A stretch of DNA of 52,638 nucleotides from Deltaproteobacteria bacterium (GTDB lineage Bacteria; Myxococcota; JACRCW01). Position numbers and translations under genes: made by a program. How positions within the stretch are numbered: the first letter of the stretch is position 1; the number at the start of each line of letters is the position of its first letter. This document shows positions 5,863 to 50,115 of this stretch, in pieces. Below the pieces are notes generated by a model. That model did not search any database. It was not told where the DNA came from and saw only the letters and a list, made by a program, of their open reading frames with translations. The DNA lies in contig JACRCW010000156.1 in NCBI GenBank assembly GCA_016218805.1, positions 1 to 52,638 on the forward strand. The letters run 5' to 3'.

Positions 5863-6699
5863 TCACAGGTGCGTGCGGACGTCCCACAGCTCGGGGAACA
5901 GCAGCCAGTCCACCGCCTTGCGCAGGAACGGGACGCCGGAGCTCCCGCCGGTGCCGCGCTTGTAGCCAATGATGCGGTGCACGGTCTTGAGGTGCCGGAA
6001 GCGCCACAGCGAGAACTGCTCCTCCACGTCCACGAGCTTCTCGGCCATCTCGTAGGCGTCCCAGGCCCGCTCCGGCGCGCGGTAGATGCCCTTGAACACC
6101 TCCACCACGCCCTCGTGCGCCACGTAGGGGCGCGTGAAGTCCCGCTCCAGCACCGCGCGGGGGACCGCGTGACCGTGGCGGGCCAGGTAGGCCAGGTACT
6201 CCTCGTAGATGGACGGACGGGCGGCCACCGCCAGCAGCGCGCGGTAGCGCGGCTCGTCATGGCGGAACACTTCAGCCATCTCCACGTTCTTGTTGTTGAG
6301 GATGAACTCAATGGTGCGGAAGTTGTGGGACTGGAACCCGCTGGCCGGTCCCAGCACGTGGCGGAATTGCAGGTACTCCGACGGAGTGAGCGTCTCCAGC
6401 ACGGCCCACTGGTTGAACAGCTGCGCCTGGATGTGTTTCACGCGGGACAGGATCTTCAGCACCGGGGGCAGCTCGTCGCGGCGGATGTGCGCCAGCGCCG
6501 CGTCCAGTTCGTGGATGACCAGCTTCATCCACAGCTCGCTGGTCTGGTGCTGGATGATGAACAGCATCTCGTCGTGGTGCGGGGGATCGCTGCGCGGGCG
6601 CTGCTGGTCCAGCAGCGCGTCCAGGCGCAGGTAGTCCGTGTAGGTCAGCTTGTCCTTGAGGTCGGTGGTGATGCCGGCTTCCAGTTCTCGGTGTGTCAT
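5863..6699 (-). CDS. kynA: tryptophan 2,3-dioxygenase
   Basis: [22 protein letters not shown] and [11 protein letters not shown] motifs; GGGAGA RBS before the ATG. Confidence 0.96.
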
Positions 6700-6859
6700 G
6701 GGTCTCCCCGGGGGCCAGGTGGCGCGCGTGTGTAGCGCAGCGGGGGTGGCCACGCCTTGGGTCCGCACGGCCGTTTGTGACGCGCCGCAGGATGGGGTTG
6801 CAGCGGGGGCCCGGCCCGCGCCAAGGTTGCGCCCACTTGGGAACCCTGGAACCCGCGTC

Positions 6860-8545
6860 GTGACCGAGCCCACCGCCCCCGCCCCGCGTCCGCCCACGCC
6901 CCGGGAGCTCCGGAAGAACCTCTCCGTCCTGCGCAAGGTGGTCCTGAAAAACCCGCTGGACCTGGACGCGCGCCTGCGCATTGCGCGCACCTACCGGCTG
7001 TTGGACAAGCCGGCCGACGCGGTGGAGCACTACCGCAGCGTGGCGCGCTATCTCGCCAACGCGGGCCACCCGGTGCTGGCCATTGCGGTGGTCAAGGAGC
7101 TGTTGCAGGTGGCGCCGGACCATCAGGAGTCCCTGCTGATGCTGGCGCGCCTGTACGCCCGCACGCGCGCCCCCGCCGAGCCCGGCCGCATTGCCGTCCC
7201 CATCCCGGAGCAGGGCACGGACGCGGCGGCGGCGGGCCTGCTGCGGCACTGGCCGCAGTCCCACACCGGGCTGTGGCGCGCGCTGCAGGAGGCGGACTCG
7301 GTGCTCAAGTCCGTGAGCCTGGCGCCGGGGACCCGGCCGGGCCCGGCGTTTGCCGCGCTGCTGGGGGAACAGGCGCGGGATACGCCGCCCATGCCCATGC
7401 CCGCCGTGGACCGCCCCATCAGCCTGGATGACGCGGACGTCCTGGAGGAGCGCGTGGCGGGCCCCGGCGTGCCGGCGCCGCCGCTGGAGGACGAATCCCC
7501 CACCAGCCCGCTGCGCCCCGCGCCCGCCGCCGGGCCCGCGCCGCCCCCGCAGGACACGGACCCGGAGGGCGTGGAGACCGTGTCCGCGGATGAGATTGCC
7601 GAGGTGCAGGACGACAGCGGGGACGCATCGCCCATGCCGCCGCTGCCGGATGTGCCGGACCACCCCATCCCGCTGCCGTCCATCCCGCTGTTCTCCTCTT
7701 TGGACCAGGACGGGTTTGTAACGCTTACGCGCGCGCTGGTGCACAAGACGGTGGCCGCGGGTGAGTACGTGTGGAAGGACGGTGATGACGCGTTCTTCCT
7801 GGTGGTGCTGGCCGCCGGCGAGGCGGTCATCTACCGCGGTGAGGGCGCGCACCGCGTGGAGATGCACCGGCTGGCCCCGGGTGACGTGGCGGGGGTGTTT
7901 GCGCTGGTGGCGGACCGCCGGCGCCAGGCCAGCATGCAGGCGGTGACGGACATTGCGTATTTTGAACTGCACCGCAGCGTGGTGGAGAAGCTGGCGCGGG
8001 ACAACAAGGCGCTGCAGGAGGCGCTGCAGGGTTTCTTCCGCGAACGCGTCATTGGCGCGGTGCTGGCCATGCTGCCGCTGGTGCGGGACCTGGACGTGGC
8101 GGCGCGGCAGGACGTGGCGGCGCGCTTCCGCATCAAGCGCTACCAGGAGGGTGACGAGTTGTTCTACGCGGGCACGGAGACCAGCGGGCTGTGGGTGGTG
8201 CTGGAGGGCGTGGTGGGCGTGGGCACGGAGCGCGCGGACGGGGAGTTTGAGACACGGCAGATGCTGCCACCAGGGCACTTTGTGGCCAGCCTGGCCCAGC
8301 CCAAGGGCGCCGCCACCGAACTGGGCGCGCTGGCCCGTGGGGACGTCACCACCGCGGTGCTGAACCACAAGGCCATTGTGGAGGTGATGACGGCGTACCC
8401 GGCGCTGCGCGGCATAGGCGAAGCGCTGGACCCGGCGGGATTCCTGCTCAGCCCCAACGTGGCCGCGGGGAGCGCGCAGCTGCCGGCGGACCTGTCCCCC
8501 GCGTTCCTGCAGGGCAGCGGCGCGCGGACGGGTGGACACACCTGA
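6860..8545 (+). CDS. TPR + two cyclic-nucleotide-binding domain protein
   Basis: N-terminal TPR-like helices, Pro/acidic linker, two CAP_ED-like domains (PLFSSL…GEYVWKDGD…GEAVI; …GDELFYAG…LEGVVGV); start uncertain. Confidence 0.85.
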
Positions 8546-8555
8546 GCGCGTGCCC

Positions 8556-8686
8556 CGTGGCATGGGGAAGCCGGGCGTCACCCGCCCCCCACCCCCCGCG
8601 CCTCCCCGCCTCGTCGGCGGAGCGGATGTCGGCGCGGGGCCGCCCCCCAAAGGGGGGCGGCGTTATTGGCTTGCCTGCGGCAAGCC
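8556..8686 (+). repeat. GC-rich multi-hairpin intergenic element (REP-like), probable terminator between convergent genes
   Basis: GCCGCCCCCC-AAA-GGGGGGCGGC hairpin at 8639-8661; GGCTTGCC-TGC-GGCAAGCC at 8668-8686; similar element at 32191-32272. Confidence 0.55.
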
Positions 8687-8693
8687 GGACGCG

Positions 8694-9326
8694 TCAGCGG
8701 TACAGCACCCGCCACGCCTGGCGCGCTCCCGGCGGCACTTCGGTCAGCGGCTGGAAGGAGATCCCGTCCCCCAGCGTCACCGCTTCGCGGAACTGGTCGG
8801 TCACCAGGATCTCGCGCGCGTGCGCAATGTCCTCCCCCAGCTTGGAGGCCGCGTTCACTTCCGCGCCAAACACCTCGTGGTCACCAATGCGCAGCATGCG
8901 CCCGAAGCCCAGCCCCACGCACAGCAGGATGAGTTCCTCGTCGGCGCGGCCCTGGTTGAAGCGCTCCAGGTGCCGCTGCATCTCCAGCGCGCACGCCAGC
9001 GCGGAGTTGGGCCGCCGGAACACCACCATCATGCTGTCCGCCTCCACCTTGAGGAGGAACCCGTCGTGGCGGTTGATGCAGGGCGTCAGCTCCCGCAGGG
9101 ACTCGTAGATGATCTGCAGGAAGTGGATGATCCCAAAGCTCACCACCTGGCGGGAGAACCCGGACAGATCGGTGAACATCACCGCCCACTCCTCGCCAAA
9201 CAGGTCCCAGATGCGCTGGTCCAGCGCGGTCTTGTCCGTGCCGGCCCGCATGCGTTCCTGGATGAGGTCCTCCAGGCGCTGCTCCGCGCCGGTGGGCTTG
9301 ATGCGGTACGCGGTGGGCATGAACAT
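8694..9326 (-). CDS. stand-alone class III adenylate/guanylate cyclase
   Basis: VMFTDLSGFS, LLKVEADS, GLGFG and VFGAEVNAASKL motifs; GGAGG RBS. Confidence 0.92.
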   Translation of the reverse strand: MFMPTAYRIKPTGAEQRLEDLIQERMRAGTDKTALDQRIWDLFGEEWAVMFTDLSGFSRQVVSFGIIHFLQIIYESLRELTPCINRHDGFLLKVEADSMMVVFRRPNSALACALEMQRHLERFNQGRADEELILLCVGLGFGRMLRIGDHEVFGAEVNAASKLGEDIAHAREILVTDQFREAVTLGDGISFQPLTEVPPGARQAWRVLYR

Positions 9327-20002: not shown

Positions 20003-20572
20003 ATGCAACTGCCGGTGCTCCATATCGAGTACCCCGCGTGGGTCGCCTCGCACGTTGACTGGGACCGCCCCTACCGTACCGACGAGGACCGGATGCGCCT
20101 CGCGATTGAGATGTCACGGCAGAACGTGGTGACGGGGACGGGCGGCCCGTTTGGCGCGGCCATCTTTGAGCGCGCGTCCGGGAAGCTGGTCAGCGTGGGG
20201 ATGAACAGCGTGGTCCGCTACAACAACAGCACGCTGCACGGCGAGATGATGGCGTTCATGATGGCGCAGGCGCGGTTGGGAAGTTTTACGCTGCGCGCCA
20301 AGGACGGGCCGGAGCATGAGCTGTTCACGTCGTGTGACCCGTGCGCCATGTGCCTGGGCGCCACCTTGTGGAGCGGCGTCACGCGCGCCGTGTGCGGCGC
20401 TGACCGTGAAGATGCGTTCCGGTTGCACTTTGAGGAGGGGCCGGTCTTCCCCGAGTCATTGCAGTATCTACGCAAGCGCGGCATTGAGATTGTGGCGGGG
20501 TTCCTGCGCGAAGAGGCCAACGCGGTCCTGGAACTGTACCGGCAGAACAAGGGCGTCATCTACAACGGGTGA
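20003..20572 (+). CDS. nucleoside/nucleotide deaminase (cytidine-deaminase superfamily, guanine deaminase/TadA-like)
   Basis: GGPFGA, HGE, CDPCAMC; GGAGGA RBS (alternative start 19964). Confidence 0.9.
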   Translation: MQLPVLHIEYPAWVASHVDWDRPYRTDEDRMRLAIEMSRQNVVTGTGGPFGAAIFERASGKLVSVGMNSVVRYNNSTLHGEMMAFMMAQARLGSFTLRAKDGPEHELFTSCDPCAMCLGATLWSGVTRAVCGADREDAFRLHFEEGPVFPESLQYLRKRGIEIVAGFLREEANAVLELYRQNKGVIYNG

Positions 20573-21023
20573 CGTTGGCCACGGCGGCGCGGACGGCGGA
20601 CACGGCGGCGGGAACCGCGCGCGCCACTGAGTCATTGAGTCCCTGGCCCATGGACGCCTGGTCCTCCACTTCAACGGCCACGACGTGGATGTGCCGCGGC
20701 ACCGGGGCGCCGAATGCGCGCGCCAGCCGCAGCGCGGTGGGCAGGCCGATGCCGTGCGTGGTGGGTCCCGCCGTGGCGGGGAGCGCATCCATGGGAAACT
20801 CCACAATGGACCCGGCAGGCCGCCGCCCGGATTGCACGGCATCCAGCAACACCACGGAATCAAAACCGTCCATGTCGTCCAGCAGGTGCAGGCCGGACAA
20901 CTCACTGCGGCGGATGACCGCGCCGGGTGGCGGGTCCCGCTCCAGTTCGTCCGCCACGCGCCATCCCACGCCGTCATCACGACGCAGCGGGTTGCCCAGG
21001 CACAGCACCAGGACCGCCGTCAT
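20556..21023 (-). CDS. hydrogenase maturation protease
   Basis: LGNPLRRDDGVG, LLDAV, TTHGIGL; directly downstream of the large subunit. Confidence 0.93.
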   Translation of the reverse strand: MTAVLVLCLGNPLRRDDGVGWRVADELERDPPPGAVIRRSELSGLHLLDDMDGFDSVVLLDAVQSGRRPAGSIVEFPMDALPATAGPTTHGIGLPTALRLARAFGAPVPRHIHVVAVEVEDQASMGQGLNDSVARAVPAAVSAVRAAVANVTRCR

Positions 21024-22501
21024 GCGTCGCCAGCAACCACCCCGCGTGACAGGCGGCGCACCAGCGTGCCGTCACGCGCGCGCACCTGCACGTCCAAGGG
21101 CATCTCCCCCGGCAGCGAATGCGACGCGCACGCGTTGCACGGGTCGTACGCGCGGTACGCCATCTCAAGCTGGTTGAGGATGGCGTCATCCACCTTGCCG
21201 CCGTGGATGAACCCGCGCGCCGCTTTCCGCACGGAAATCTGCACCGGCGCGGCGTTGTGCTGGGAGGCGACGATGAGGTTCACGTGCGTAAGGATGCCCT
21301 GTGCGTCGGTCTGGTAGTGGTGGATGAGCGTGCCGCGCGGCGCCTCCACAATGCCAATGCCCTCAGCGGGTGTGGCCTCAGGGATGCGGCGCACGTCCGG
21401 ACTACGCAGTTCCTCATCCTCCGCCAGCGCCGCAACGGCCTCCGCGGCCTGCATCACCTCCACCAGCCGGGCCCAGTGGAACGCCAGCGTGCGGTGCACT
21501 GGACGCCCGCCCAGGGCGGTGAACATCTTCTGCCGGTGCTCTTCCGCGCGCGGCGTGGCCATGCCGGTGGCGGCGTTGAGGCGTCCCAGCGGGCCCACGC
21601 GGTACAGGCTGCTGTCCGGTCCCTCTTCAAACCCCTTCCAGCCACGCGCGCGGAGGAACGGGAACTTCACGTACGTCCAACTCTCCGCGTGCTCGTCAAT
21701 GTGCTGTGCGTAGTCGCGCGCGGCAAACGTGAGCAGTTCGGCACCCGCGGTGTCCACCACGCGCACCCGGCCGCGGTAGAAGGTCACGCGGCCCTGGTCA
21801 TCCACCAGGCCCATGGAGTGGGTACGCAGGTTGAACGGTTCGGCCTCCATGGCCCGGTTCCACGCGTCCCCCGCCACGACGAGCTTGTAGAAGGTGTCCA
21901 GCGAGAATGCCGCGAAATCCACCAGCGAAGGAGCCAGCGCGCGGAGCTTTTCCAGCGTGGGAGGGGGCATGGGGCGGGACAGCCCGCCGGGCAGGGCAAA
22001 CACCGGATGTGCCGTGCGGCCGGACATTTCCCCCATGATGGCGCGCACCGCCTTGCGCGTGCTGACGACGCGCGCGCCCACGTCCGCACCCAGCTTGGCG
22101 ATGACGCCGAGCACGTTGCGCTGTGCTGGCGGCGTGTCCGCGCCCAGCAGCAGGTCCGGGCCGCCCAGGTAGTAGAAGTGGAGCGCGTGGTCCTCGAGAA
22201 TGAACAGGTTGTAATAGAGTTCCCGCAGTTTGTGGGCGGCCGGTGGCGGGTCCACCTTCCACAGGTCATCCAGCGCGCGCGCGGAGGCCAGGTGGTGCGC
22301 GGCAGGGCACACACCGCAGATGTGCGCGGTGATTTGCGGCATTTCCTCGGCGGGACGACCCACACAGAAACGCTCAAATCCACGCAATTCCGGAATCTGC
22401 AGGTACGCGTGCTCCACCTCGCCGGCGTCATTCAGGAAGATCTCAATCTTCCCGTGGCCCTCCAGGCGCGTCATGGGGTCAATGGTGATGCGCTGGCTCA
22501 T
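21020..22501 (-). CDS. mvhA: [NiFe]-hydrogenase large subunit, group 3c-like (MvhA)
   Basis: TRLEGHG, RGFE…ICGVC (L1), EAPRGTL, RAYDPCNACASH (L2) plus a cleavable C-terminal extension. Confidence 0.93.
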   Translation of the reverse strand: MSQRITIDPMTRLEGHGKIEIFLNDAGEVEHAYLQIPELRGFERFCVGRPAEEMPQITAHICGVCPAAHHLASARALDDLWKVDPPPAAHKLRELYYNLFILEDHALHFYYLGGPDLLLGADTPPAQRNVLGVIAKLGADVGARVVSTRKAVRAIMGEMSGRTAHPVFALPGGLSRPMPPPTLEKLRALAPSLVDFAAFSLDTFYKLVVAGDAWNRAMEAEPFNLRTHSMGLVDDQGRVTFYRGRVRVVDTAGAELLTFAARDYAQHIDEHAESWTYVKFPFLRARGWKGFEEGPDSSLYRVGPLGRLNAATGMATPRAEEHRQKMFTALGGRPVHRTLAFHWARLVEVMQAAEAVAALAEDEELRSPDVRRIPEATPAEGIGIVEAPRGTLIHHYQTDAQGILTHVNLIVASQHNAAPVQISVRKAARGFIHGGKVDDAILNQLEMAYRAYDPCNACASHSLPGEMPLDVQVRARDGTLVRRLSRGVVAGDA

Positions 22502-23910
22502 GGGAGCACCGGGAAGCGGCGCGCGGGGATGAGCGCGGACGCCATGGAGTAGCGGTAGAACGTCCCGGTGGGGTCCACAAACGCACCGGCTGCAGCGGCG
22601 GCACCCTCCGCGCTTTCACCGGCCAGCAGCGAACCCACCGCGCCGAGGAATGCCGCGCCCTGGTCCGTCACCCCGTCGGGCGGGCCAAAGCAGCCGCGGC
22701 ACGGCATGTTGGCGTTCATGCAGCTCTCTCCGCAGCCCTGGCGCGTGGCGGGGCCCAGGCACACCAGCCCGTCAGCCAGAAAGCATTTGTCCGGGTTGGG
22801 TTGGTAGGTGGCAATGCGCCGCATGCGGGACAGGTCCACCTTCTCCGGGCGTGACTCGCGGCGCGTGCACGTCTCGCACAGCGCGCGGCCGGGAGAGAGG
22901 ACGGCGCCGAACGGAGGCAGTTTCCCGGCCAGCAGCGCCTGTACCGCGGGGAGGATGACTTCCGTCGTCGGTGGACAGCCGGGCACGGTGCAGTCCACCG
23001 CCACCACTTCCGCCAGCGGCCGCACGCGCGCGCACAGGTCCGGCAGGTGCAACGCGTCGTGTTGCGTCCCGGGATGGTCCCCGTGTGAGACGGCACGGAT
23101 GGCGGCCGACCCGACGAGGTTGCCCAGCCCCACGATGCCCCCGAGGTGCGCACACGCTCCAAAGGCCACCACCACGCGGGACTTGCGCCGCAACAACTCC
23201 GCCATTTCCACCTGTTCCTGCGTGCGCACCGCGCCGTTGATGAAGCTGACGTCAATGTCGCCGTCGGGCAGCGCCTCAATGTCCTTGCGGCGGAAGTCCA
23301 GCGCCACAGGCCACAGCACCACGTCCGCCACCTCCAGCACCGCGTGCAGACCCTCCGCAAGGTCCACAATGGCCTCCTCGCATCCGCCGCAGGAGGCGTT
23401 CCAGTAGAACGCCAGGCGCGGCCGCCGTCCGGCGGGCGGGGCGGCGGCGGCCGGTCCCGGTTGCACGTGGGCCGGGACCGCGGAGGGCGCTTCTTCCAGC
23501 GTGGACCGGGCGTAGCTCAGGGGGCCCAACTGCTGCAGCGCGGCCGTCATCTCCCGCACCGTGGAGGCAAAATGCTCGCTTTCCGTGGCGGACGCCCACG
23601 TCATGCGGACACGCGCGGGTTCAAAGCCCAGGTCCGCCAGCGTGCGCTGCAACAGCGTGAAACGCGCCAGCGCCTCAATGTTTCCGCGCAGGTAATGGCA
23701 ATCCCCCGGGTGGCATCCGGCAACCAGGACGCCGTCCGCGCCCTCGCGCAGCGCCTGGACCACGTGCGTGGGCTCAATGCGGCCGGTGCACATCACGCGG
23801 ATGGTCAGCAGCGCCTGCGGGTAGACCAGGCGCTCGCGCCCGGCAGCGTCGGCCGCTGCGTAGGCGCAGTGATCGCACAGGAACGCCACAATGCGCGGGG
23901 TGAACGTCAT
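22498..23910 (-). CDS. fused MvhD ([2Fe-2S]) - MvhG (hydrogenase small subunit)
   Basis: N-terminal FLCDHCAY…RVMCTGR…GCHPGDCHY; Ala/Pro linker; SCGGC…GACA…PGCPP…CETC…CLGPATRQGC…PCRGC. Confidence 0.92.
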   Translation of the reverse strand: MTFTPRIVAFLCDHCAYAAADAAGRERLVYPQALLTIRVMCTGRIEPTHVVQALREGADGVLVAGCHPGDCHYLRGNIEALARFTLLQRTLADLGFEPARVRMTWASATESEHFASTVREMTAALQQLGPLSYARSTLEEAPSAVPAHVQPGPAAAAPPAGRRPRLAFYWNASCGGCEEAIVDLAEGLHAVLEVADVVLWPVALDFRRKDIEALPDGDIDVSFINGAVRTQEQVEMAELLRRKSRVVVAFGACAHLGGIVGLGNLVGSAAIRAVSHGDHPGTQHDALHLPDLCARVRPLAEVVAVDCTVPGCPPTTEVILPAVQALLAGKLPPFGAVLSPGRALCETCTRRESRPEKVDLSRMRRIATYQPNPDKCFLADGLVCLGPATRQGCGESCMNANMPCRGCFGPPDGVTDQGAAFLGAVGSLLAGESAEGAAAAAGAFVDPTGTFYRYSMASALIPARRFPVLP

Positions 23911-23924
23911 GGGAGCGGCCTCCG

Positions 23925-24146
23925 TCAGAACTGGATCTGGATGGTCAGCAACGGCGCCTTGCCGTTCACCGTCAGCACCATCTTCTTCTTCTTCTGGCAG
24001 AACTCACGGATATCCTTCTCAAACGACGGACAATCTCCCGATATTTCCACCAGCGTGCCCGGAGCCGTCTTTTGTGTGGCATTGGACAGGGCCAGCGTGG
24101 GGTGCGGACAGCGCAAACCTACAGCGTCAATCTTCTGGATCTCCAT
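23925..24146 (-). CDS. tusA: TusA-family sulfur carrier protein
   Basis: 73 aa, IDAVGLRCPHP (CPxP), G-x-L-x-I-x-x-D, DIREFC. Confidence 0.88.
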   Translation of the reverse strand: MEIQKIDAVGLRCPHPTLALSNATQKTAPGTLVEISGDCPSFEKDIREFCQKKKKMVLTVNGKAPLLTIQIQF

Positions 24147-24163
24147 TTCCTTTGCTTTCCTCC

Positions 24164-26110
24164 TCAGTGACTCCGGGTGGTACCCTCCATGGCCAACAAT
24201 CCGCTGATTTCCGCGGAGACCTGGCGGTACTCAAACTGCGGACACGCAATGGCGAGCGACGGGCACGCTGCGGCGCACGTCCCGCACCCGCGGCAATGCG
24301 CGGGCTCCACGCGGCACTTGCCATCCGCGAGCGTGCGGATGGCTCCGTACGGGCACGCCGTCACGCACACGCCGCACGCTCCGCACCGCTCCGGGATGAC
24401 GCGCGCGGCCAGCGGTTCCAGCTCCAGCCGTTCGCCGGGGAGGCGGGTGGAGAGGATGCGCCCGGCCGCCGCGGTGCCATCCCGCACCACGTCACCCAGC
24501 GGGCGCGGGCCCAGCGCCGCGCCCACCACGTAGATCCCCGGCACGCGCGTTCCCGTTGGCACCAGCAGGTCAACGTCCGCTTCCAAGAATCCCTCCGCCG
24601 TGGTGCGCACGTGGAGATCGCGCGCCAGCTCGCCCACGGTGGAAGACGGACGCGTGCCGGTCCACAACACCACCAGGTCCGCGGTCCCCGTGGACGCCAG
24701 CTTGCCCGCGCGCCGGTAGGACACCCCGTTGTCCGTGGGAACCAGCGTTGCGGGGTCCAGCGCCCCGCTGGAGAACGCAACGCCCGCCGCGCGCAGCTGC
24801 TCAATCATGGGCGCGGCAAGTGTGGCTTGGTGGCAATCCCCCGCAAGTTGCAGCTCCACGCCCTCACAAACGTCCAACAGGCGGACGGCCAGCTTGGTCA
24901 GCTCGCGGCGGGCAAGGTCCGTGTCCCGCGCCGGCATCTCTGACGACGGCGCGAGCACCACGCGCCGCGGTACACCGCCGCCGGGCACCGTGACCTTGCC
25001 CGACGTGGGTCCCTGCGGATGCAGCATGCGCTCCAGTTGCACGCACGAGATGACCCCGGGCACCGCCGGGACCGGCAGCGTCTCCATCCCCGTGGCGACG
25101 ACCACCGCACCGCACGTCAACGTGCGGTTCACCGGCGCCCGCTGGAAATCAATGGCATTCATGGGGCAGGCCTGGACGCACGGTCCGTCACACCCCGCGC
25201 CGTTGCACCGGCCGCAGTGCACCGGGTCCACGTGTGACACGTGCGGCAGCGACCCTGAGTACGCCATGCCGATCGCCTTGCGCTGGCCCACGCCCTCGTC
25301 GAGCGGATCGGGGAAGGACACGGGGCAGGCCGCGGCGCATTCCCCCGCACCCATGCACCGCGACGGGTCCACCGCCGGCGCGGCGGATTCCACCTCAACG
25401 GTGAACTGCCCGTGGAAGCCCTTCACGGAGACCACGCGGGATTCGCGCAGGACGTCAATCTGCGGGTGGTCCAGCACCTGGTTGATGGCCGGCTCCAGGA
25501 AACAGGACGCACACTTCATGGACGGGAAGACCTCATCCAACCGCGCAAGCAGTCCGCCCAGCGCGGCGCTGCGTTCCACCAGCGCCACGCGCCGGTTCTT
25601 CTGCGCCAGCGTCAGCGCGGCGGACAGCCCCGCCATTCCCCCACCAATTACGACGACATCCGCGCTGGCCTCCACCGTGCGCGTTTCCACCGCTTCCTGT
25701 TGCGCGGCCCGCCACAGTGCGCCCCGCACCAGGCCGCGCGCCCGCACGGTCGCCTGGCCGTCGTCGTCGCCCTGCCATTCGCACTGCTCCCGCAGATTGG
25801 TCATCTGCAACAGGAACGGGTTGAGTCCCGCGTCGGCCAGCACCTGCCGGAAGGTCGCTTCGTGCTCATGCGGTGAGCACCCGCCAATCACCACGCGGTC
25901 CAGTCCCTGCGTCCGCACCTGCTCAGCAAGCTTGGCTTTCCCGTCGGGCGCGCACAGAAACGCGTGCCGCTGCACCACCGCCGCCTCCGGCCACGCCTCC
26001 TGTGCCGCCAGGTCATCCAGCCGGATGGCGTTTCCCATGTTGGGACCGCACTCGCAGAAGAACAGGCCAATCCGTGGTGACGGAGTTGGCTTGCCATGCT
26101 GTTCACTCAC
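24164..26110 (-). CDS. hdrA: heterodisulfide reductase subunit A-like flavo/Fe-S protein
   Basis: RIGLFFCECGPN…GCSP…NLREQC, VIGGGMAG FAD motif, FPSMKCASC, inserted and C-terminal ferredoxin motifs; GGAGG RBS. Confidence 0.9.
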   Translation of the reverse strand: MSEQHGKPTPSPRIGLFFCECGPNMGNAIRLDDLAAQEAWPEAAVVQRHAFLCAPDGKAKLAEQVRTQGLDRVVIGGCSPHEHEATFRQVLADAGLNPFLLQMTNLREQCEWQGDDDGQATVRARGLVRGALWRAAQQEAVETRTVEASADVVVIGGGMAGLSAALTLAQKNRRVALVERSAALGGLLARLDEVFPSMKCASCFLEPAINQVLDHPQIDVLRESRVVSVKGFHGQFTVEVESAAPAVDPSRCMGAGECAAACPVSFPDPLDEGVGQRKAIGMAYSGSLPHVSHVDPVHCGRCNGAGCDGPCVQACPMNAIDFQRAPVNRTLTCGAVVVATGMETLPVPAVPGVISCVQLERMLHPQGPTSGKVTVPGGGVPRRVVLAPSSEMPARDTDLARRELTKLAVRLLDVCEGVELQLAGDCHQATLAAPMIEQLRAAGVAFSSGALDPATLVPTDNGVSYRRAGKLASTGTADLVVLWTGTRPSSTVGELARDLHVRTTAEGFLEADVDLLVPTGTRVPGIYVVGAALGPRPLGDVVRDGTAAAGRILSTRLPGERLELEPLAARVIPERCGACGVCVTACPYGAIRTLADGKCRVEPAHCRGCGTCAAACPSLAIACPQFEYRQVSAEISGLLAMEGTTRSH

Positions 26111-26323
26111 GCGGAACCTCCGTGCGCTTCAGGGGAAGGCGTTCCGGCCAACGCGGCCGCGAAGCTACAGCCCTGCCACAACGGCTACAAGGTTGACGAT
26201 CGCCGCGACCGGGTAGAAACGCGAAGATCCTGCGTTGGCGTCACCGTCCCGCCGGGGTGCGCGATTTGTCGTCGAGACCGCAGTGTGTTGCGGCGCGGAC
26301 TCCATTCGTGGAAGTTGCGCACC

Positions 26324-27757
26324 ATGACCACCGCTGACGCGCACACGCCGCCGCCGGGCCGCGGCATCTTCTGCAACCGGACCTTGAACCTGCGGTCCAT
26401 CCACGCCGTCGGCTACGACATGGACTACACGCTGATCCACTACCGCGTGGACCAGTGGGAACGGCGCGCGTTTGAGCACATCCGCCAGCGCCTGTCCGCG
26501 CGCGGCTGGCCCGTGGACGACGTGACCTTTGACCCGGATGCGGTGACGCGCGGGCTGGTTATCGACACCGAGCTGGGGAACGTGGTGAAGGCCAACCGGT
26601 TCGGGTTTGTAAAGCGCGCATTTCACGGCACGCGGGCGCTGCAATACGACGAATGGCGCGGCGTGTACGCACGCACGCAGGTGGACCTGGGCGAGCCGCG
26701 CTGGGTGTTCCTCAACACGCTGTTCAGCATCTCAGAGGCCTGCATGTACATGCACCTTGTGGAGTTGCTGGATGCGCGCCGCATACCGGAGGTGATGGGC
26801 TACCCGGAGTTGTACGCCGTGGTGCGCCGCACGCTGGATGAAGCGCACATGGAGGGCGAGCTCAAGCGGGAGATCGTGTCCGACCCGGACCGGTTTGTGG
26901 AGTTGGACCCGGACGTCCCGCTGGCGCTGCTGGACCAGAAGACCGCGGGCAAGAAGCTGCTGCTCATCACGAACAGCGAGTGGGACTACACCGCGGCGAT
27001 GATGAAGTACGCGTTTGACCGGTTCTTGCCGACGGGGACGACGTGGCGTGACCTGTTCCACCTGGTGATGGTCAGCGCGCGCAAGCCGGACTTCTTCAGC
27101 ACGCGCACGCCGGTGTACGAGGTCCAGACCGACACCGGGCTGTTGCGGCCTTTCCCCACGGGGTTTGCGCCCGGCGGCGTGTACCACGGCGGCAACGCGC
27201 ACCAGGTGGAGCGGCACCTGGGCGTGGGCGGGGATGACATCCTCTACGTGGGTGACCACATGTTCACGGACGTGCACATCAGCAAGAGCATCCTGCGCTG
27301 GCGCACGGCGCTGATCGTCCGCGAACTGGAGGCGGAGATTGAGGCCACGGTGCGCTTCGCGCCCGACCAGGCGCGGCTGGATGGGCTGATGGCCAAGAAG
27401 GAGAGGCTGGAGTTCGCTTTCAGCCAGCTGCGCGTGCAACTGCAGCGCGGACGTGCGCCCCACGCCTCCGACACGACGACCAGCGCGCACGAACTGGAGC
27501 GGCGCATGGGCGAGCTGCGCCAGGAAATGCTGGAACTGGACAGCGCCATCAGCCCGCTGGCGCGCACCAGCGGCGAGCTGTTCAACCGGCGGTGGGGCCC
27601 GTTGATGCGCGCCGGGAACGACAAGAGTCACCTGGCACGCCAGGTGGAACGCTACGCGGACATCTACATGTCGCGGGTCAGCAACTTCCTGTTCCAGACG
27701 CCGTTTGTGTACCTGCGCTCGCCGCGGGGGAGCCTGCCGCATGACCCGATTCGCTGA
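26324..27757 (+). CDS. HAD-IG family (cN-II-like) 5'-nucleotidase
   Basis: IFCNRTLNL, GYDMDYTL, LITNS, ARKPDFF, YVGDHMFTD. Confidence 0.94.
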   Translation: MTTADAHTPPPGRGIFCNRTLNLRSIHAVGYDMDYTLIHYRVDQWERRAFEHIRQRLSARGWPVDDVTFDPDAVTRGLVIDTELGNVVKANRFGFVKRAFHGTRALQYDEWRGVYARTQVDLGEPRWVFLNTLFSISEACMYMHLVELLDARRIPEVMGYPELYAVVRRTLDEAHMEGELKREIVSDPDRFVELDPDVPLALLDQKTAGKKLLLITNSEWDYTAAMMKYAFDRFLPTGTTWRDLFHLVMVSARKPDFFSTRTPVYEVQTDTGLLRPFPTGFAPGGVYHGGNAHQVERHLGVGGDDILYVGDHMFTDVHISKSILRWRTALIVRELEAEIEATVRFAPDQARLDGLMAKKERLEFAFSQLRVQLQRGRAPHASDTTTSAHELERRMGELRQEMLELDSAISPLARTSGELFNRRWGPLMRAGNDKSHLARQVERYADIYMSRVSNFLFQTPFVYLRSPRGSLPHDPIR

Positions 27758-48864: not shown

Positions 48865-50115
48865 ATGGGTGATTCGGACAGCCATTCCAGAGCCGCCAAC
48901 GGCGTCCGCAGGGTGCTGCTGCTGGATGATGAAGCCAGCGTCCTTGACGTCCTCTCCAACTACCTGCGCTCCCCGCGCCTGGAAATTGTCACCTGCCAGG
49001 AGATTGAGGCGGCGGAGGCGGTGCTCAAGCACAGCCACTTTGACGTTGTGGTCACGGATCTGCGCGTGAGTGAACTGGGCGGGCTGGAGGGCATGCGCCT
49101 CATCCGGTTTGTGGCCACGCACTTCCCGGAGACCGTGGTGCTGGCCATGAGCGGGTTTGTGAACGAGGAGGTGTTGGCCATTGGCCGCGCCGTGGGCGTC
49201 ACGGACGTGCTGCAGAAACCGCTGGACCTCAAGCGGCTGTGGGAGTGGGTGCACGGCCAGGGCGTCCCCATGGAGGTGGGCGGCGAAGGCCCCGTGGAGC
49301 ACATGGACCTGCTGGACGAGTTCATGCAGCGCAACCTGGTGCGCGCGGTGTTCCAGCCCATTGCCGACCTGGCGTTGGTGGAGGGCCCCGGCGAGGACAT
49401 GGCCGGCGAGCAGATCCACGGCTACGAGAGCCTGGCCCGCGCGCCCGCCGGCACGCCGCTGCGCAACCCGGAGATCCTGTTTGAGTACGCCGCGCGCAAG
49501 GAGCGCCTGGTGGAGTGCGACCTGATGTGCATCCGCGCGGCGCTGCGCGATGCTGTGCCGCTGGGGCAGGCGCGGCTGTTCATCAACGTCCACCCGCGCT
49601 CGCTCACCAGCCCGGACGCACCCCGCGCCATCCGGGACGTCGTGGTCGCTGCGGGGCGGGACCCGCGGGACATCGTGCTGGAACTGACTGAGCACCACGC
49701 CATCGTCAATCCGGCCGCGTTTGCCAGCCACCTGCAGAAGCTGCGGGAGTGGGGCTTCCAGTGCGCGCTGGATGATTTTGGCGTGGGCTATGCCAACCTG
49801 CGGCTCATCAGCGAAATCCGCCCCGACTACCTGAAGATCTCCGGCTACTTCTGCCTGGGCGTGGCGCGGGACCCCTACCGCCAGGTGCTCATCCGCAACG
49901 TGGCCCGCATGGCGGGGGACCTCAAGATCCCCGTCATCTGCGAAGGCATTGAAACCGAGGAGGAGCACCACATCGTGCGCCAGCTCGGCGTGCCGTTTGG
50001 ACAGGGCTACCTGTTCAGCCGGCCGCACCCCGGGACGGACCTTGCGCGCCGCTACCTGGGGGCCGCGCCGGCCAGCCCCCAGCCGTCCGTCCCCGCCACG
50101 TCGTTGCTACCGTGA
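48865..50115 (+). CDS. response regulator - EAL c-di-GMP phosphodiesterase
   Basis: REC (LLDDE, VTD, KP) + FQPI, ESLAR, FINV, LELTE, DDFGVGYA, EGIE, QGYLF. Confidence 0.93.
   Translation: MGDSDSHSRAANGVRRVLLLDDEASVLDVLSNYLRSPRLEIVTCQEIEAAEAVLKHSHFDVVVTDLRVSELGGLEGMRLIRFVATHFPETVVLAMSGFVNEEVLAIGRAVGVTDVLQKPLDLKRLWEWVHGQGVPMEVGGEGPVEHMDLLDEFMQRNLVRAVFQPIADLALVEGPGEDMAGEQIHGYESLARAPAGTPLRNPEILFEYAARKERLVECDLMCIRAALRDAVPLGQARLFINVHPRSLTSPDAPRAIRDVVVAAGRDPRDIVLELTEHHAIVNPAAFASHLQKLREWGFQCALDDFGVGYANLRLISEIRPDYLKISGYFCLGVARDPYRQVLIRNVARMAGDLKIPVICEGIETEEEHHIVRQLGVPFGQGYLFSRPHPGTDLARRYLGAAPASPQPSVPATSLLP

Follow-up and report, generated by a model that had tools for sequence, protein, structure and literature searches.

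The closest described counterpart of the system considered here is MvhAGD-HdrABC, the H2:CoM-S-S-CoB, ferredoxin oxidoreductase of hydrogenotrophic methanogens. Mvh-type hydrogenases joined to HdrA without HdrB and HdrC are widespread in bacteria and found in some archaea. We analyzed one of them in a 52,638-nt stretch of DNA from a Deltaproteobacteria bacterium (hereafter the window). The window takes up all of contig C131, one of 170 in a 6.43-Mb assembly that is 92.4% complete. A minus-strand block of five genes (20556..26110) encodes HdrA, a TusA-like protein, an MvhD-MvhG fusion, MvhA and a maturation protease. The TusA-like protein belongs to a subfamily that very likely has a functional tie to HdrA, MvhD and the Mvh hydrogenase, and it may be a thiol redox partner that stands in for HdrBC.

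Comparison with the methanogen enzyme relies on the positions of its redox centers. In the available portions of PMC12350162 and PMC13580544, the HdrA clusters HA1-HA3 lie on a mobile N/C-terminal arm, HA5 and HA6 lead towards ferredoxin at the inserted domain, and HA4 lies on the path from flavin adenine dinucleotide (FAD) to HdrB, the high-potential exit. The same portion of PMC13580544 places Cys202/Cys205 of HdrA, together with Cys16/His68/Asp71 of MvhD, between the MvhD cluster and the flavin, where these residues bind an unidentified ligand.

HdrA and the TusA-like protein of the operon

Coordinates and family assignments (Pfam and NCBIfam, in agreement for every operon gene) bear out the five co-oriented, tightly packed genes described in an earlier note on this DNA. 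From hdrA downstream, the genes are separated by 17 nt and 14 nt and then overlap twice by 4 nt, and a GGAGG Shine-Dalgarno sequence stands 6 nt ahead of the hdrA GTG start. That note was also right in stating that hdrB and hdrC are missing from the operon and the window, as the contig holds no CCG domain. In the rest of the window we saw no hyp gene, no hdrB or hdrC and no plainly related gene. HdrA and the [NiFe] large subunit each occur once in the assembly, both in the window.

The window HdrA keeps the FAD motif, the N-terminal four-Cys domain, the CxxC pair C200/C203 (Cys202/Cys205 of Methanothermobacter marburgensis HdrA) and the inserted and C-terminal ferredoxin domains. It aligns to the methanogen structure 5ODC_A in two blocks, residues 11-386 and 477-639, with the middle unaligned. 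We aligned 72 HdrA sequences, 24 of them linked to a TusA-like gene and 48 unlinked. The motif HC.VGSRD...YCS..CC is missing from the window protein and from those of its five close relatives, loci L008, L091, L097, L098 and L100, and from no other TusA-linked sequence. Its four cysteines are kept in 46 of the 48 unlinked proteins, the exceptions being L057, which is an extraction artefact, and L062, which reads CCGC. No replacement conserved cysteines were seen in the alignment of the motif-less HdrAs. Since the remaining conserved cysteines are accounted for by other HdrA domains, we infer by elimination that the missing motif is the HA4 site, in line with what the 2017 structure paper reportedly shows. 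Loss of this motif would fit an acceptor other than HdrBC.

A second change concerns the ferredoxin domains. The C-terminal one has eight cysteines and the inserted one has seven of the usual eight, the second Cys of its first CxxCxxCxxxCP motif being replaced by alanine (A255, codon 25346-25348). At least 90% of 47 aligned HdrAs, among them all 23 of the other TusA-linked proteins, have Cys at this position, and Ala is unique to the window; with this substitution the path to ferredoxin could include a [3Fe-4S] cluster. A second sample from the same groundwater study gave contigs that show no differences in the region of the codon (25173-26070); they are short and identical to the window, none is shown across the tusA junctions, and they do not amount to independent assembly support. 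An enrichment of Cys at HdrA position 483 (46% of TusA-linked sequences vs 8%) was set aside, this being a Ser/Ala/Cys beta-strand position that follows lineage.

The TusA-like protein represents a three-Cys subfamily, with C13 in CPHP, C39 in GDCP and a third cysteine at C50. Across 84 sequences C13 never varies, C39 and C50 are each kept in at least 90%, and the C-terminus (..IQIQF) is conserved as well. Compared with Escherichia coli TusA, C13 corresponds to Cys19 and C50 to Cys56, while C39 replaces an Asp and matches the DCP of YedF. The AlphaFold2 model has a TusA fold (mean predicted local distance difference test score of 92.3), with a template-modelling score of 0.88 and a root-mean-square deviation of 1.2 Å to 3LVJ_C. 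In the model C13 is located just before helix 1, C39 just after strand 2 and C50 inside helix 2; from the beta-alpha-beta topology, C13 and C39 would lie on the same edge of the sheet.

Membership of the TusA family is clear from the PF01206 score (Table 1) and the active-site Cys in CPxP. The protein is not an equivalog of E. coli TusA (NF001423, 35.9 bits vs a cut-off of 78), nor is it YedF (NF008242, 24.7 bits vs a cut-off of 79), and the assembly has no match to the YeeE/YedE family. The assembly also has a TusA of more canonical type (58.7 bits in Pfam), whose gene adjoins a DsrE_2 gene on contig C74, and the presence of this canonical TusA-DsrE pair elsewhere in the genome argues that the operon copy is specialised. 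The earlier note had taken the operon protein for a plain TusA. That label belongs to the copy beside DsrE, which is the housekeeping one; the operon copy is of a separate subfamily with an extra near-invariant Cys. A subfamily profile found 353 proteins at E ≤ 1e-10 in a library of 1.84 billion representatives, and a protein-level homologue search with the TusA-like protein returned only three close relatives. The top library matches (P0008-P0018 and others) are proteins of 450-820 aa with two to six tandem TusA-like stretches.

The operon is predicted to encode a cytoplasmic Mvh-type [NiFe] hydrogenase. MvhA carries ICGVCPAAH (L1) and AYDPCNACASH (L2), which agree with the Mvh motifs ICGxCxxxH (L1) and AYDPCxxCATH (L2) given in PMC6085437. 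It has the Ni-binding Cys pairs at both its N- and C-terminal ends, as well as the C-terminal extension on which the protease acts. Its closest solved structures are 7T2R_D (1e-106), 5XF9_D and the MvhA 5ODC_F (8e-96). The MvhD domain, which matches methanogen MvhD in the PDB at 9e-37, has the conserved residues C12, C15, C41, C66, H67, D70, C71 and H72, of which the cysteines are invariant. By alignment, C15/H67/D70 are Cys16/His68/Asp71 of the M. marburgensis protein.

Linkage of the TusA-like subfamily to Hdr/Mvh genes

The MvhD-MvhG fusion is found in at least 600 relatives, out of at least 607 pattern matches, in species-representative genomes. From these relatives 80 loci were kept and 65 analyzed, 15 having been dropped in which only the MvhD part matched. 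The usual layout places hdrA directly upstream of mvhDG-mvhA(-protease). Partner genes were sought by Pfam in 150 of 162 same-strand flanking open reading frames (three longer than 1000 aa and the nine shortest were dropped). A CCG protein lies nearby in 17 of the 65 loci and the other 48 have none; a NuoF-like flavoprotein is present in seven, a Fer4-only protein of ~360-400 aa between two HdrA-like genes in about 12 and an NfnB/GltD-like pair in one, and about 20 loci have no visible partner gene. The HdrBC-less state, treated as distinctive in the earlier note, is therefore commonplace. Some of these loci, of Bacteroidota type and a few others (L013, L014, L017, L018, L020, L021, L041, L042, L044, L065 and L078), carry a protein of ~330-400 aa between two HdrA-like genes upstream of mvhDG-mvhA. 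This protein has only an N-terminal 4Fe-4S dicluster motif, matches no Pfam family in L013, and may be another uncharacterised partner module.

A TusA-like gene is present in five of the 80 genome loci, as judged by tblastn and a custom hidden Markov model (E ≤ 1) over 7681 six-frame open reading frames. These loci belong to an Anaeromyxobacter metagenome-assembled genome (MAG), Desulfocicer, a Coriobacteriia MAG and two Thermodesulfovibrionales MAGs, with the gene at a different position in each lineage. No CCG, NuoF-like or other partner gene was found on either strand of the five. On an MvhA tree of 53 rows, which left out L040 with its mvhA in pieces, the TusA-linked rows all fall inside one supported 23-row clade. 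The label needs three changes on this tree, of which supported branches force at least two, and a single origin of the link was rejected.

Starting from the TusA subfamily gives the complementary picture. A metagenome scan with the subfamily alignment gave at least 592 pattern matches and at least 451 confirmed relatives, from which the best 80 loci were kept. In 52 of these best 80, hdrA, mvhD(G), mvhA or the protease gene lies within 6 kb on the same strand; the count is 50 without two protease-only loci, and 17 of 21 where at least 2 kb is visible on both sides. The gene within 400 nt of tusA is mvhD(G) in 20 of the best 80 loci, hdrA in 15, mvhA in 13 and the protease in four; two loci have two such neighbors and 30 have none, many of the latter being short contigs. 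The linked loci show many gene orders.

The same association is seen in 401 genomes of the window's phylum, where subfamily scores are bimodal (at least 94 bits vs at most 62 bits). The subfamily occurs in 39 genomes and an MvhA at least 60% identical to that of the window in 36, with both in 33, a count that is dominated by one family and whose genomes are not independent. In 30 of the 33, tusA is found no more than 4 kb from mvhA and in the same orientation; the three genomes that have the MvhA without the subfamily are 79-89% complete. By spacing, the order is tusA-hdrA-mvhDG-mvhA in 25-26 genomes; the hdrA-tusA-mvhDG-mvhA order of the window accounts for 4 of 30 and was confirmed for genome G129 and locus L088. 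As to the conservation of this arrangement, which the earlier note had raised, the linkage is kept (33 of 36 genomes, 30 of them adjacent, and across phyla) and the order is a minority one. Its proposal that tusA between hdrA and mvhDG marks the slot of an acceptor module does not survive, as the gene has that place in a minority of cases. Because the linkage persists despite shuffled gene orders, these neighborhoods make a functional tie between the TusA subfamily and HdrA/MvhD/Mvh very likely.

Several loci have features of their own. In L188 (G372:C159, 255-6383) two subfamily copies flank the operon, as tusA-hdrA-mvhDG-mvhA-protease-tusA2, and a second copy is located elsewhere in several genomes of the same family. 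In L089 (6001-6646) and L184 (G169:C49, 4295-4940) a TusA-like gene is followed by a protease-like stretch with no hydrogenase or hdrA nearby, which looks like the remnant of a deleted operon. Loci L008, L091, L096 and L099-L102, which are among the closest relatives, have tusA-hdrA-mvhDG-mvhA directly downstream of a row of lptB-rpoN-hpf-ptsN type (matches to ABC_tran, Sigma54, S30AE and PTS_EIIA_2), a context that the window does not share. In L105 (2559-3515) and L109 (3180-4082) a gene for an HdrC-like dicluster protein with a fused helix-turn-helix domain of MerR type directly precedes a CCG (HdrB-like) gene and hdrA-mvhD, the set being downstream of mvhD-tusA and a gene for a methyl-accepting chemotaxis protein (MCP).

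Full-text literature searches found no description of a TusA-linked Mvh/HdrA module; the review of Appel et al. 2021, cited in PMC13490349, may bear on the subject. The available parts of PMC12142623 and PMC13490349 describe no link between TusA and Mvh/HdrA. What the window adds is the clade-specific loss of the HA4 motif, A255 and the minority gene order.

Possible roles of the TusA-like protein

We favor, with a confidence just short of even, a role for the Cys pair of the TusA-like protein as a dedicated thiol redox partner of HdrA/MvhD that replaces HdrBC. The fused MvhG-MvhD would carry electrons from the hydrogenase to the flavoprotein HdrA. In methanogens HA4 passes the high-potential electron to HdrC/HdrB; here the three-Cys TusA-fold protein would take that role, with C13/C39, as a disulfide or a persulfide, receiving electrons from H2 at the HdrA flavin/CxxC-MvhD site. 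Ferredoxin could take the other electron by way of the ferredoxin domains. Once reduced, the carrier might either give up its load, as sulfide or as thiol reducing power, or signal the H2 or redox state to other proteins. Within this scheme the gene content, the linkage, the cysteine patterns and the TusA fold are observed, and we infer the physical binding, the direction of electron flow, the bifurcation and the group on the cysteines. The scheme fits with the HA4 motif being lost and with no other acceptor gene being found in the TusA-linked genome loci.

Several observations weigh against a thiol partner of this kind. The HA4 motif is retained in 18 of the 24 TusA-linked HdrAs, so its loss is not needed for the TusA link, and in L105 and L109 HdrC/HdrB genes stand beside the TusA-linked set. 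A255 may change the low-potential path. Known enzymes for disulfide reduction from Fe-S chains use special clusters, as in HdrB and ferredoxin:thioredoxin reductase, and none is evident in the operon proteins. Neither a source of sulfane sulfur nor a sulfur-metabolism context is evident in the assembly, since DsrC/TusE and YeeE/YedE were not found there. To these are added the lack of independence among the genomes of the phylum count, the failure to find HypA, HypC, HypD and HypF in the 92.4%-complete assembly, and the many distant members adjoining signaling genes, which suggest a relay rather than a bulk acceptor.

As such a relay, which the earlier note did not consider, the TusA-like protein would read the redox state of HdrA/MvhD, or a sulfur species, and pass it to kinases, chemoreceptors, STAS partner-switching proteins or cyclic di-GMP proteins; the hydrogenase-HdrA module would in that case be mainly an H2/redox sensor, or would itself be regulated by the small protein. 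Of the 52 Hdr/Mvh-linked metagenome loci, 21 have the cluster immediately adjoined by signaling genes, on the same strand in 20 of them; these genes encode dCache/CZB chemoreceptors (MCP), CheW, PAS kinases, Hpt-receiver-GGDEF, GAF-HD and STAS/HATPase/PP2C proteins. Of 21 scanned loci that lack Hdr/Mvh, six have a kinase or PAS-LuxR gene right after the TusA-like gene. In genome loci L052 and L054 a CZB chemoreceptor gene stands in that place, and in L019 genes for CheA and a receiver do. Extra copies within the phylum show tusA2-EAL (G238), mvhD-hdrA-tusA-STAS (G045), HATPase-tusA-PAS-STAS (G024) and tusA-STAS-STAS-HATPase (G014). The order in L154 is mvhG-mvhA-tusA-kinase, neither hdrA nor mvhD being adjacent, and in L165 it is mvhG-mvhA-tusA, the contig ending soon after tusA. 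However, the members flanked by signaling genes are the more distant ones (36-45% identity to the window protein), and no signaling gene adjoins the operon in the window or in those relatives whose TusA is close to it, at 49-62% identity (L088, L091, L096-L103, L008 and G129). A relay would moreover begin as the thiol-partner role does, with the cysteines changing in redox or sulfur state, and so overlaps with that role. We regard a relay as unlikely; it may be the main output in other lineages.

Two further accounts, both improbable in our judgment, leave the TusA-like protein outside electron transfer. It could be a passenger of a plain H2:ferredoxin oxidoreductase, or of an enzyme served by another soluble acceptor or by an HdrD/TfrB-like CCG protein encoded in trans. 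That about 20 of the 65 related loci have no partner gene indicates that such enzymes may work alone, and the assembly does offer CCG candidates. The HdrBC-less state noted earlier extends to the whole assembly as far as canonical hdrB/hdrC go, but HdrD-like proteins are present. The four CCG matches of the assembly belong to two proteins on other contigs: one of 613 aa on C161 (Fer4 and two CCG domains) and one of 489 aa on C65 (Fer4 and two CCG domains), both TfrB/LdhH/GlpC/DsrK-like with scores under every cut-off. Their genes are not beside redox partners of the system, that on C161 adjoining an M16 peptidase gene. A passenger, moreover, would not stay linked through shuffled orders in several phyla, nor would it account for an HdrA without the motif assigned here to the cluster that feeds HdrC-type partners. 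The other account, which we rate marginally lower, is maturation or repair, in which the protein would supply sulfur for an Fe-S cluster or for the HdrA CxxC/MvhD ligand rather than be a substrate. TusA family members are sulfur carriers, the fold and the CPxP Cys are retained, tusA adjoins the maturation protease or hypA in L040, L114, L117 and L148, and Cys202/Cys205 of methanogen HdrA hold a ligand (PMC13580544, available portion). Against this, 60 of the 65 related hdrA-mvhDG-mvhA loci do without a tusA-like gene, and the near-invariant C39 and the TusA-kinase pairs without a nearby Hdr would be left unexplained. To our knowledge, the methanogen complexes with the ligand likewise have no tusA-like gene in their operons.

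Finally, the operon could be a relic, decaying or silent, whose hydrogenase cannot mature without hyp genes. The earlier note had proposed a genome-wide look at these genes, and the outcome is divided: HypA, HypC, HypD and HypF are not found in the assembly, the protease is present, and HypD occurs in five of five relatives carrying the hydrogenase. Given these relatives, an unassembled hyp cluster is the likelier explanation, and one missed cluster is plausible at this completeness and contig number. The five frames are also intact, with all metal-binding motifs except for the clade-wide HA4 loss and A255, and we consider a relic very improbable.

A fuller version of the thiol-partner role joins it to the signaling neighbors. 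The TusA-fold protein would be the missing physiological partner of HdrBC-less bacterial Mvh-HdrA, docking at the CxxC/ligand site that lies between the MvhD cluster and the HdrA flavin. H2 would reduce it there as a protein disulfide or persulfide, and in many lineages it would take this state on to chemoreceptors, kinases, STAS partner-switching proteins and cyclic di-GMP enzymes. We hold this combination to be doubtful; if true, cells would have a thiol-based pathway for H2 sensing, so far unrecognised, with a flavoprotein of the bifurcating type at its base. More generally, a small, purifiable protein tied to HdrA/MvhD across phyla is a concrete candidate partner, and in the clade of the window HdrA has, alongside the TusA link, lost the motif attributed to the HdrC-feeding cluster. 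If the kinase and chemoreceptor link is functional, it would show how cells sense H2 or the cytoplasmic redox state. The system may also bear on the role of the conserved Cys pair beside the bifurcating flavin in the methanogen structures.

Window features and comparison with known systems

The coordinates of the operon features are collected in Table 1. The operon is flanked by a convergent deaminase gene and a divergent 5'-nucleotidase gene. The longest open reading frame of the latter, on the plus strand, opens with an ATG at 26096 and shares 26096-26110 with hdrA, whose GTG start is at 26110; the true nucleotidase start is probably further downstream, as the Pfam match begins only at residue 91, and this would leave a divergent promoter region of ~200 nt. 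The sigma-54-like match in this region, 68 nt before the hdrA start codon, was rejected as not significant: the pattern has a background of 0.8 per kb, and the single match has no counterpart upstream of 10 related operons. A scan for sigma-70 promoters and terminators found none. Receiver-EAL, TPR/cNMP-binding and small cyclase-like proteins are encoded at 48865-50115 and 6650-9326, more than 10 kb from the operon and with no visible link to it.

Table 1 Features of the hydrogenase operon in the window
Feature	Coordinates	Strand	Size or residues	Assignment
hdrA	24164-26110	-	648 aa	NCBIfam HdrA2/HdrA, 6e-131 to 1e-97, all below equivalog cut-offs; best PDB match 5ODC_A, 1e-103
tusA-like	23925-24146	-	73 aa	PF01206, 1.3e-12, 47.8 bits (cut-off 28.6); CPHP motif
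mvhD-mvhG fusion	22498-23910	-	470 aa	FlpD over residues 7-129, 1e-47
MvhD domain ([2Fe-2S] connector)	23524..23892	-	residues 7-129 of fusion	
MvhG part of fusion			residues 165-463	Oxidored_q6/VhuG; VhuG 1e-54
mvhA	21020-22501	-	493 aa	VhuA, 3e-105, 352 bits (cut-off 800)
Maturation endopeptidase	20556-21023	-	155 aa	TIGR00072, 1.4e-32, above cut-off
Upstream non-coding region	26111..26330	-		Probably operon promoter; weak sigma-54-like match TGGCAGGGCTGTAGC

With MvhAGD-HdrABC of methanogens (PDB codes 5ODC, 9SW2 and 8RVU) the window operon has in common homologues of MvhA, MvhG, MvhD and HdrA, along with the FAD motif, the HdrA CxxC, the Cys/His/Asp site of MvhD and two ferredoxin domains. 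Unlike the methanogen system, it has no HdrB/HdrC, its MvhD is fused to MvhG, and a gene for a three-Cys TusA-fold protein lies inside it. The host is a bacterium, presumably one without CoM/CoB metabolism, and its HdrA differs by A255 and by the absence of the putative HA4 motif. The six clusters of the methanogen HdrA would accordingly not all be provided for, the C...C...CC of the thioredoxin-reductase domain being gone and Cys255 being Ala.

The sulfur-oxidising Hdr-like (sHdr) systems resemble the window in that an Hdr-type module is genetically tied to a TusA-family carrier, in sHdr as part of a TusA/DsrE/rhodanese sulfur relay (PMC11094781). They differ in having HdrB/HdrC and lipoate-binding proteins and no hydrogenase, the window operon having no CCG subunit. 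The window as a whole holds no CCG protein, and the operon's neighbors are the deaminase and nucleotidase genes; LbpA was not searched for. The TusA of the window is also of a different subfamily from that of sHdr, with the extra Cys, and the canonical TusA-DsrE pair is elsewhere in the genome. With E. coli TusA (1DCJ, 3LVJ) and YedF (1JE3) it shares the fold, the CPxP Cys and C50 having equivalents in TusA and the DCP Cys in YedF. The partners differ, being Hdr/Mvh and signaling genes for the window subfamily and IscS/TusBCD or YedE for TusA/YedF.

The window MvhA has its best PDB match (1e-106) in the electron-bifurcating enzyme of 7T2R/7T30, which we take to be NiFe-HydABCSL, with a HydABC composition. 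The window operon is without NuoE/NuoF-like subunits and has HdrA as its flavoprotein; NuoF-like partners are found in 7 of the 65 relatives. The regulatory, H2-sensing [NiFe] hydrogenases HoxBC/HupUV signal through the HoxJ kinase; they are of a different hydrogenase group and are not known to have a TusA-like adaptor or an HdrA. Unlike HoxBC/HupUV-HoxJ, the window operon has no adjoining kinase. Its signaling-linked relatives (mvhG-mvhA-tusA-kinase and hdrA-mvhD-tusA-MCP) would resemble those systems, in that a hydrogenase feeds a signal pathway.

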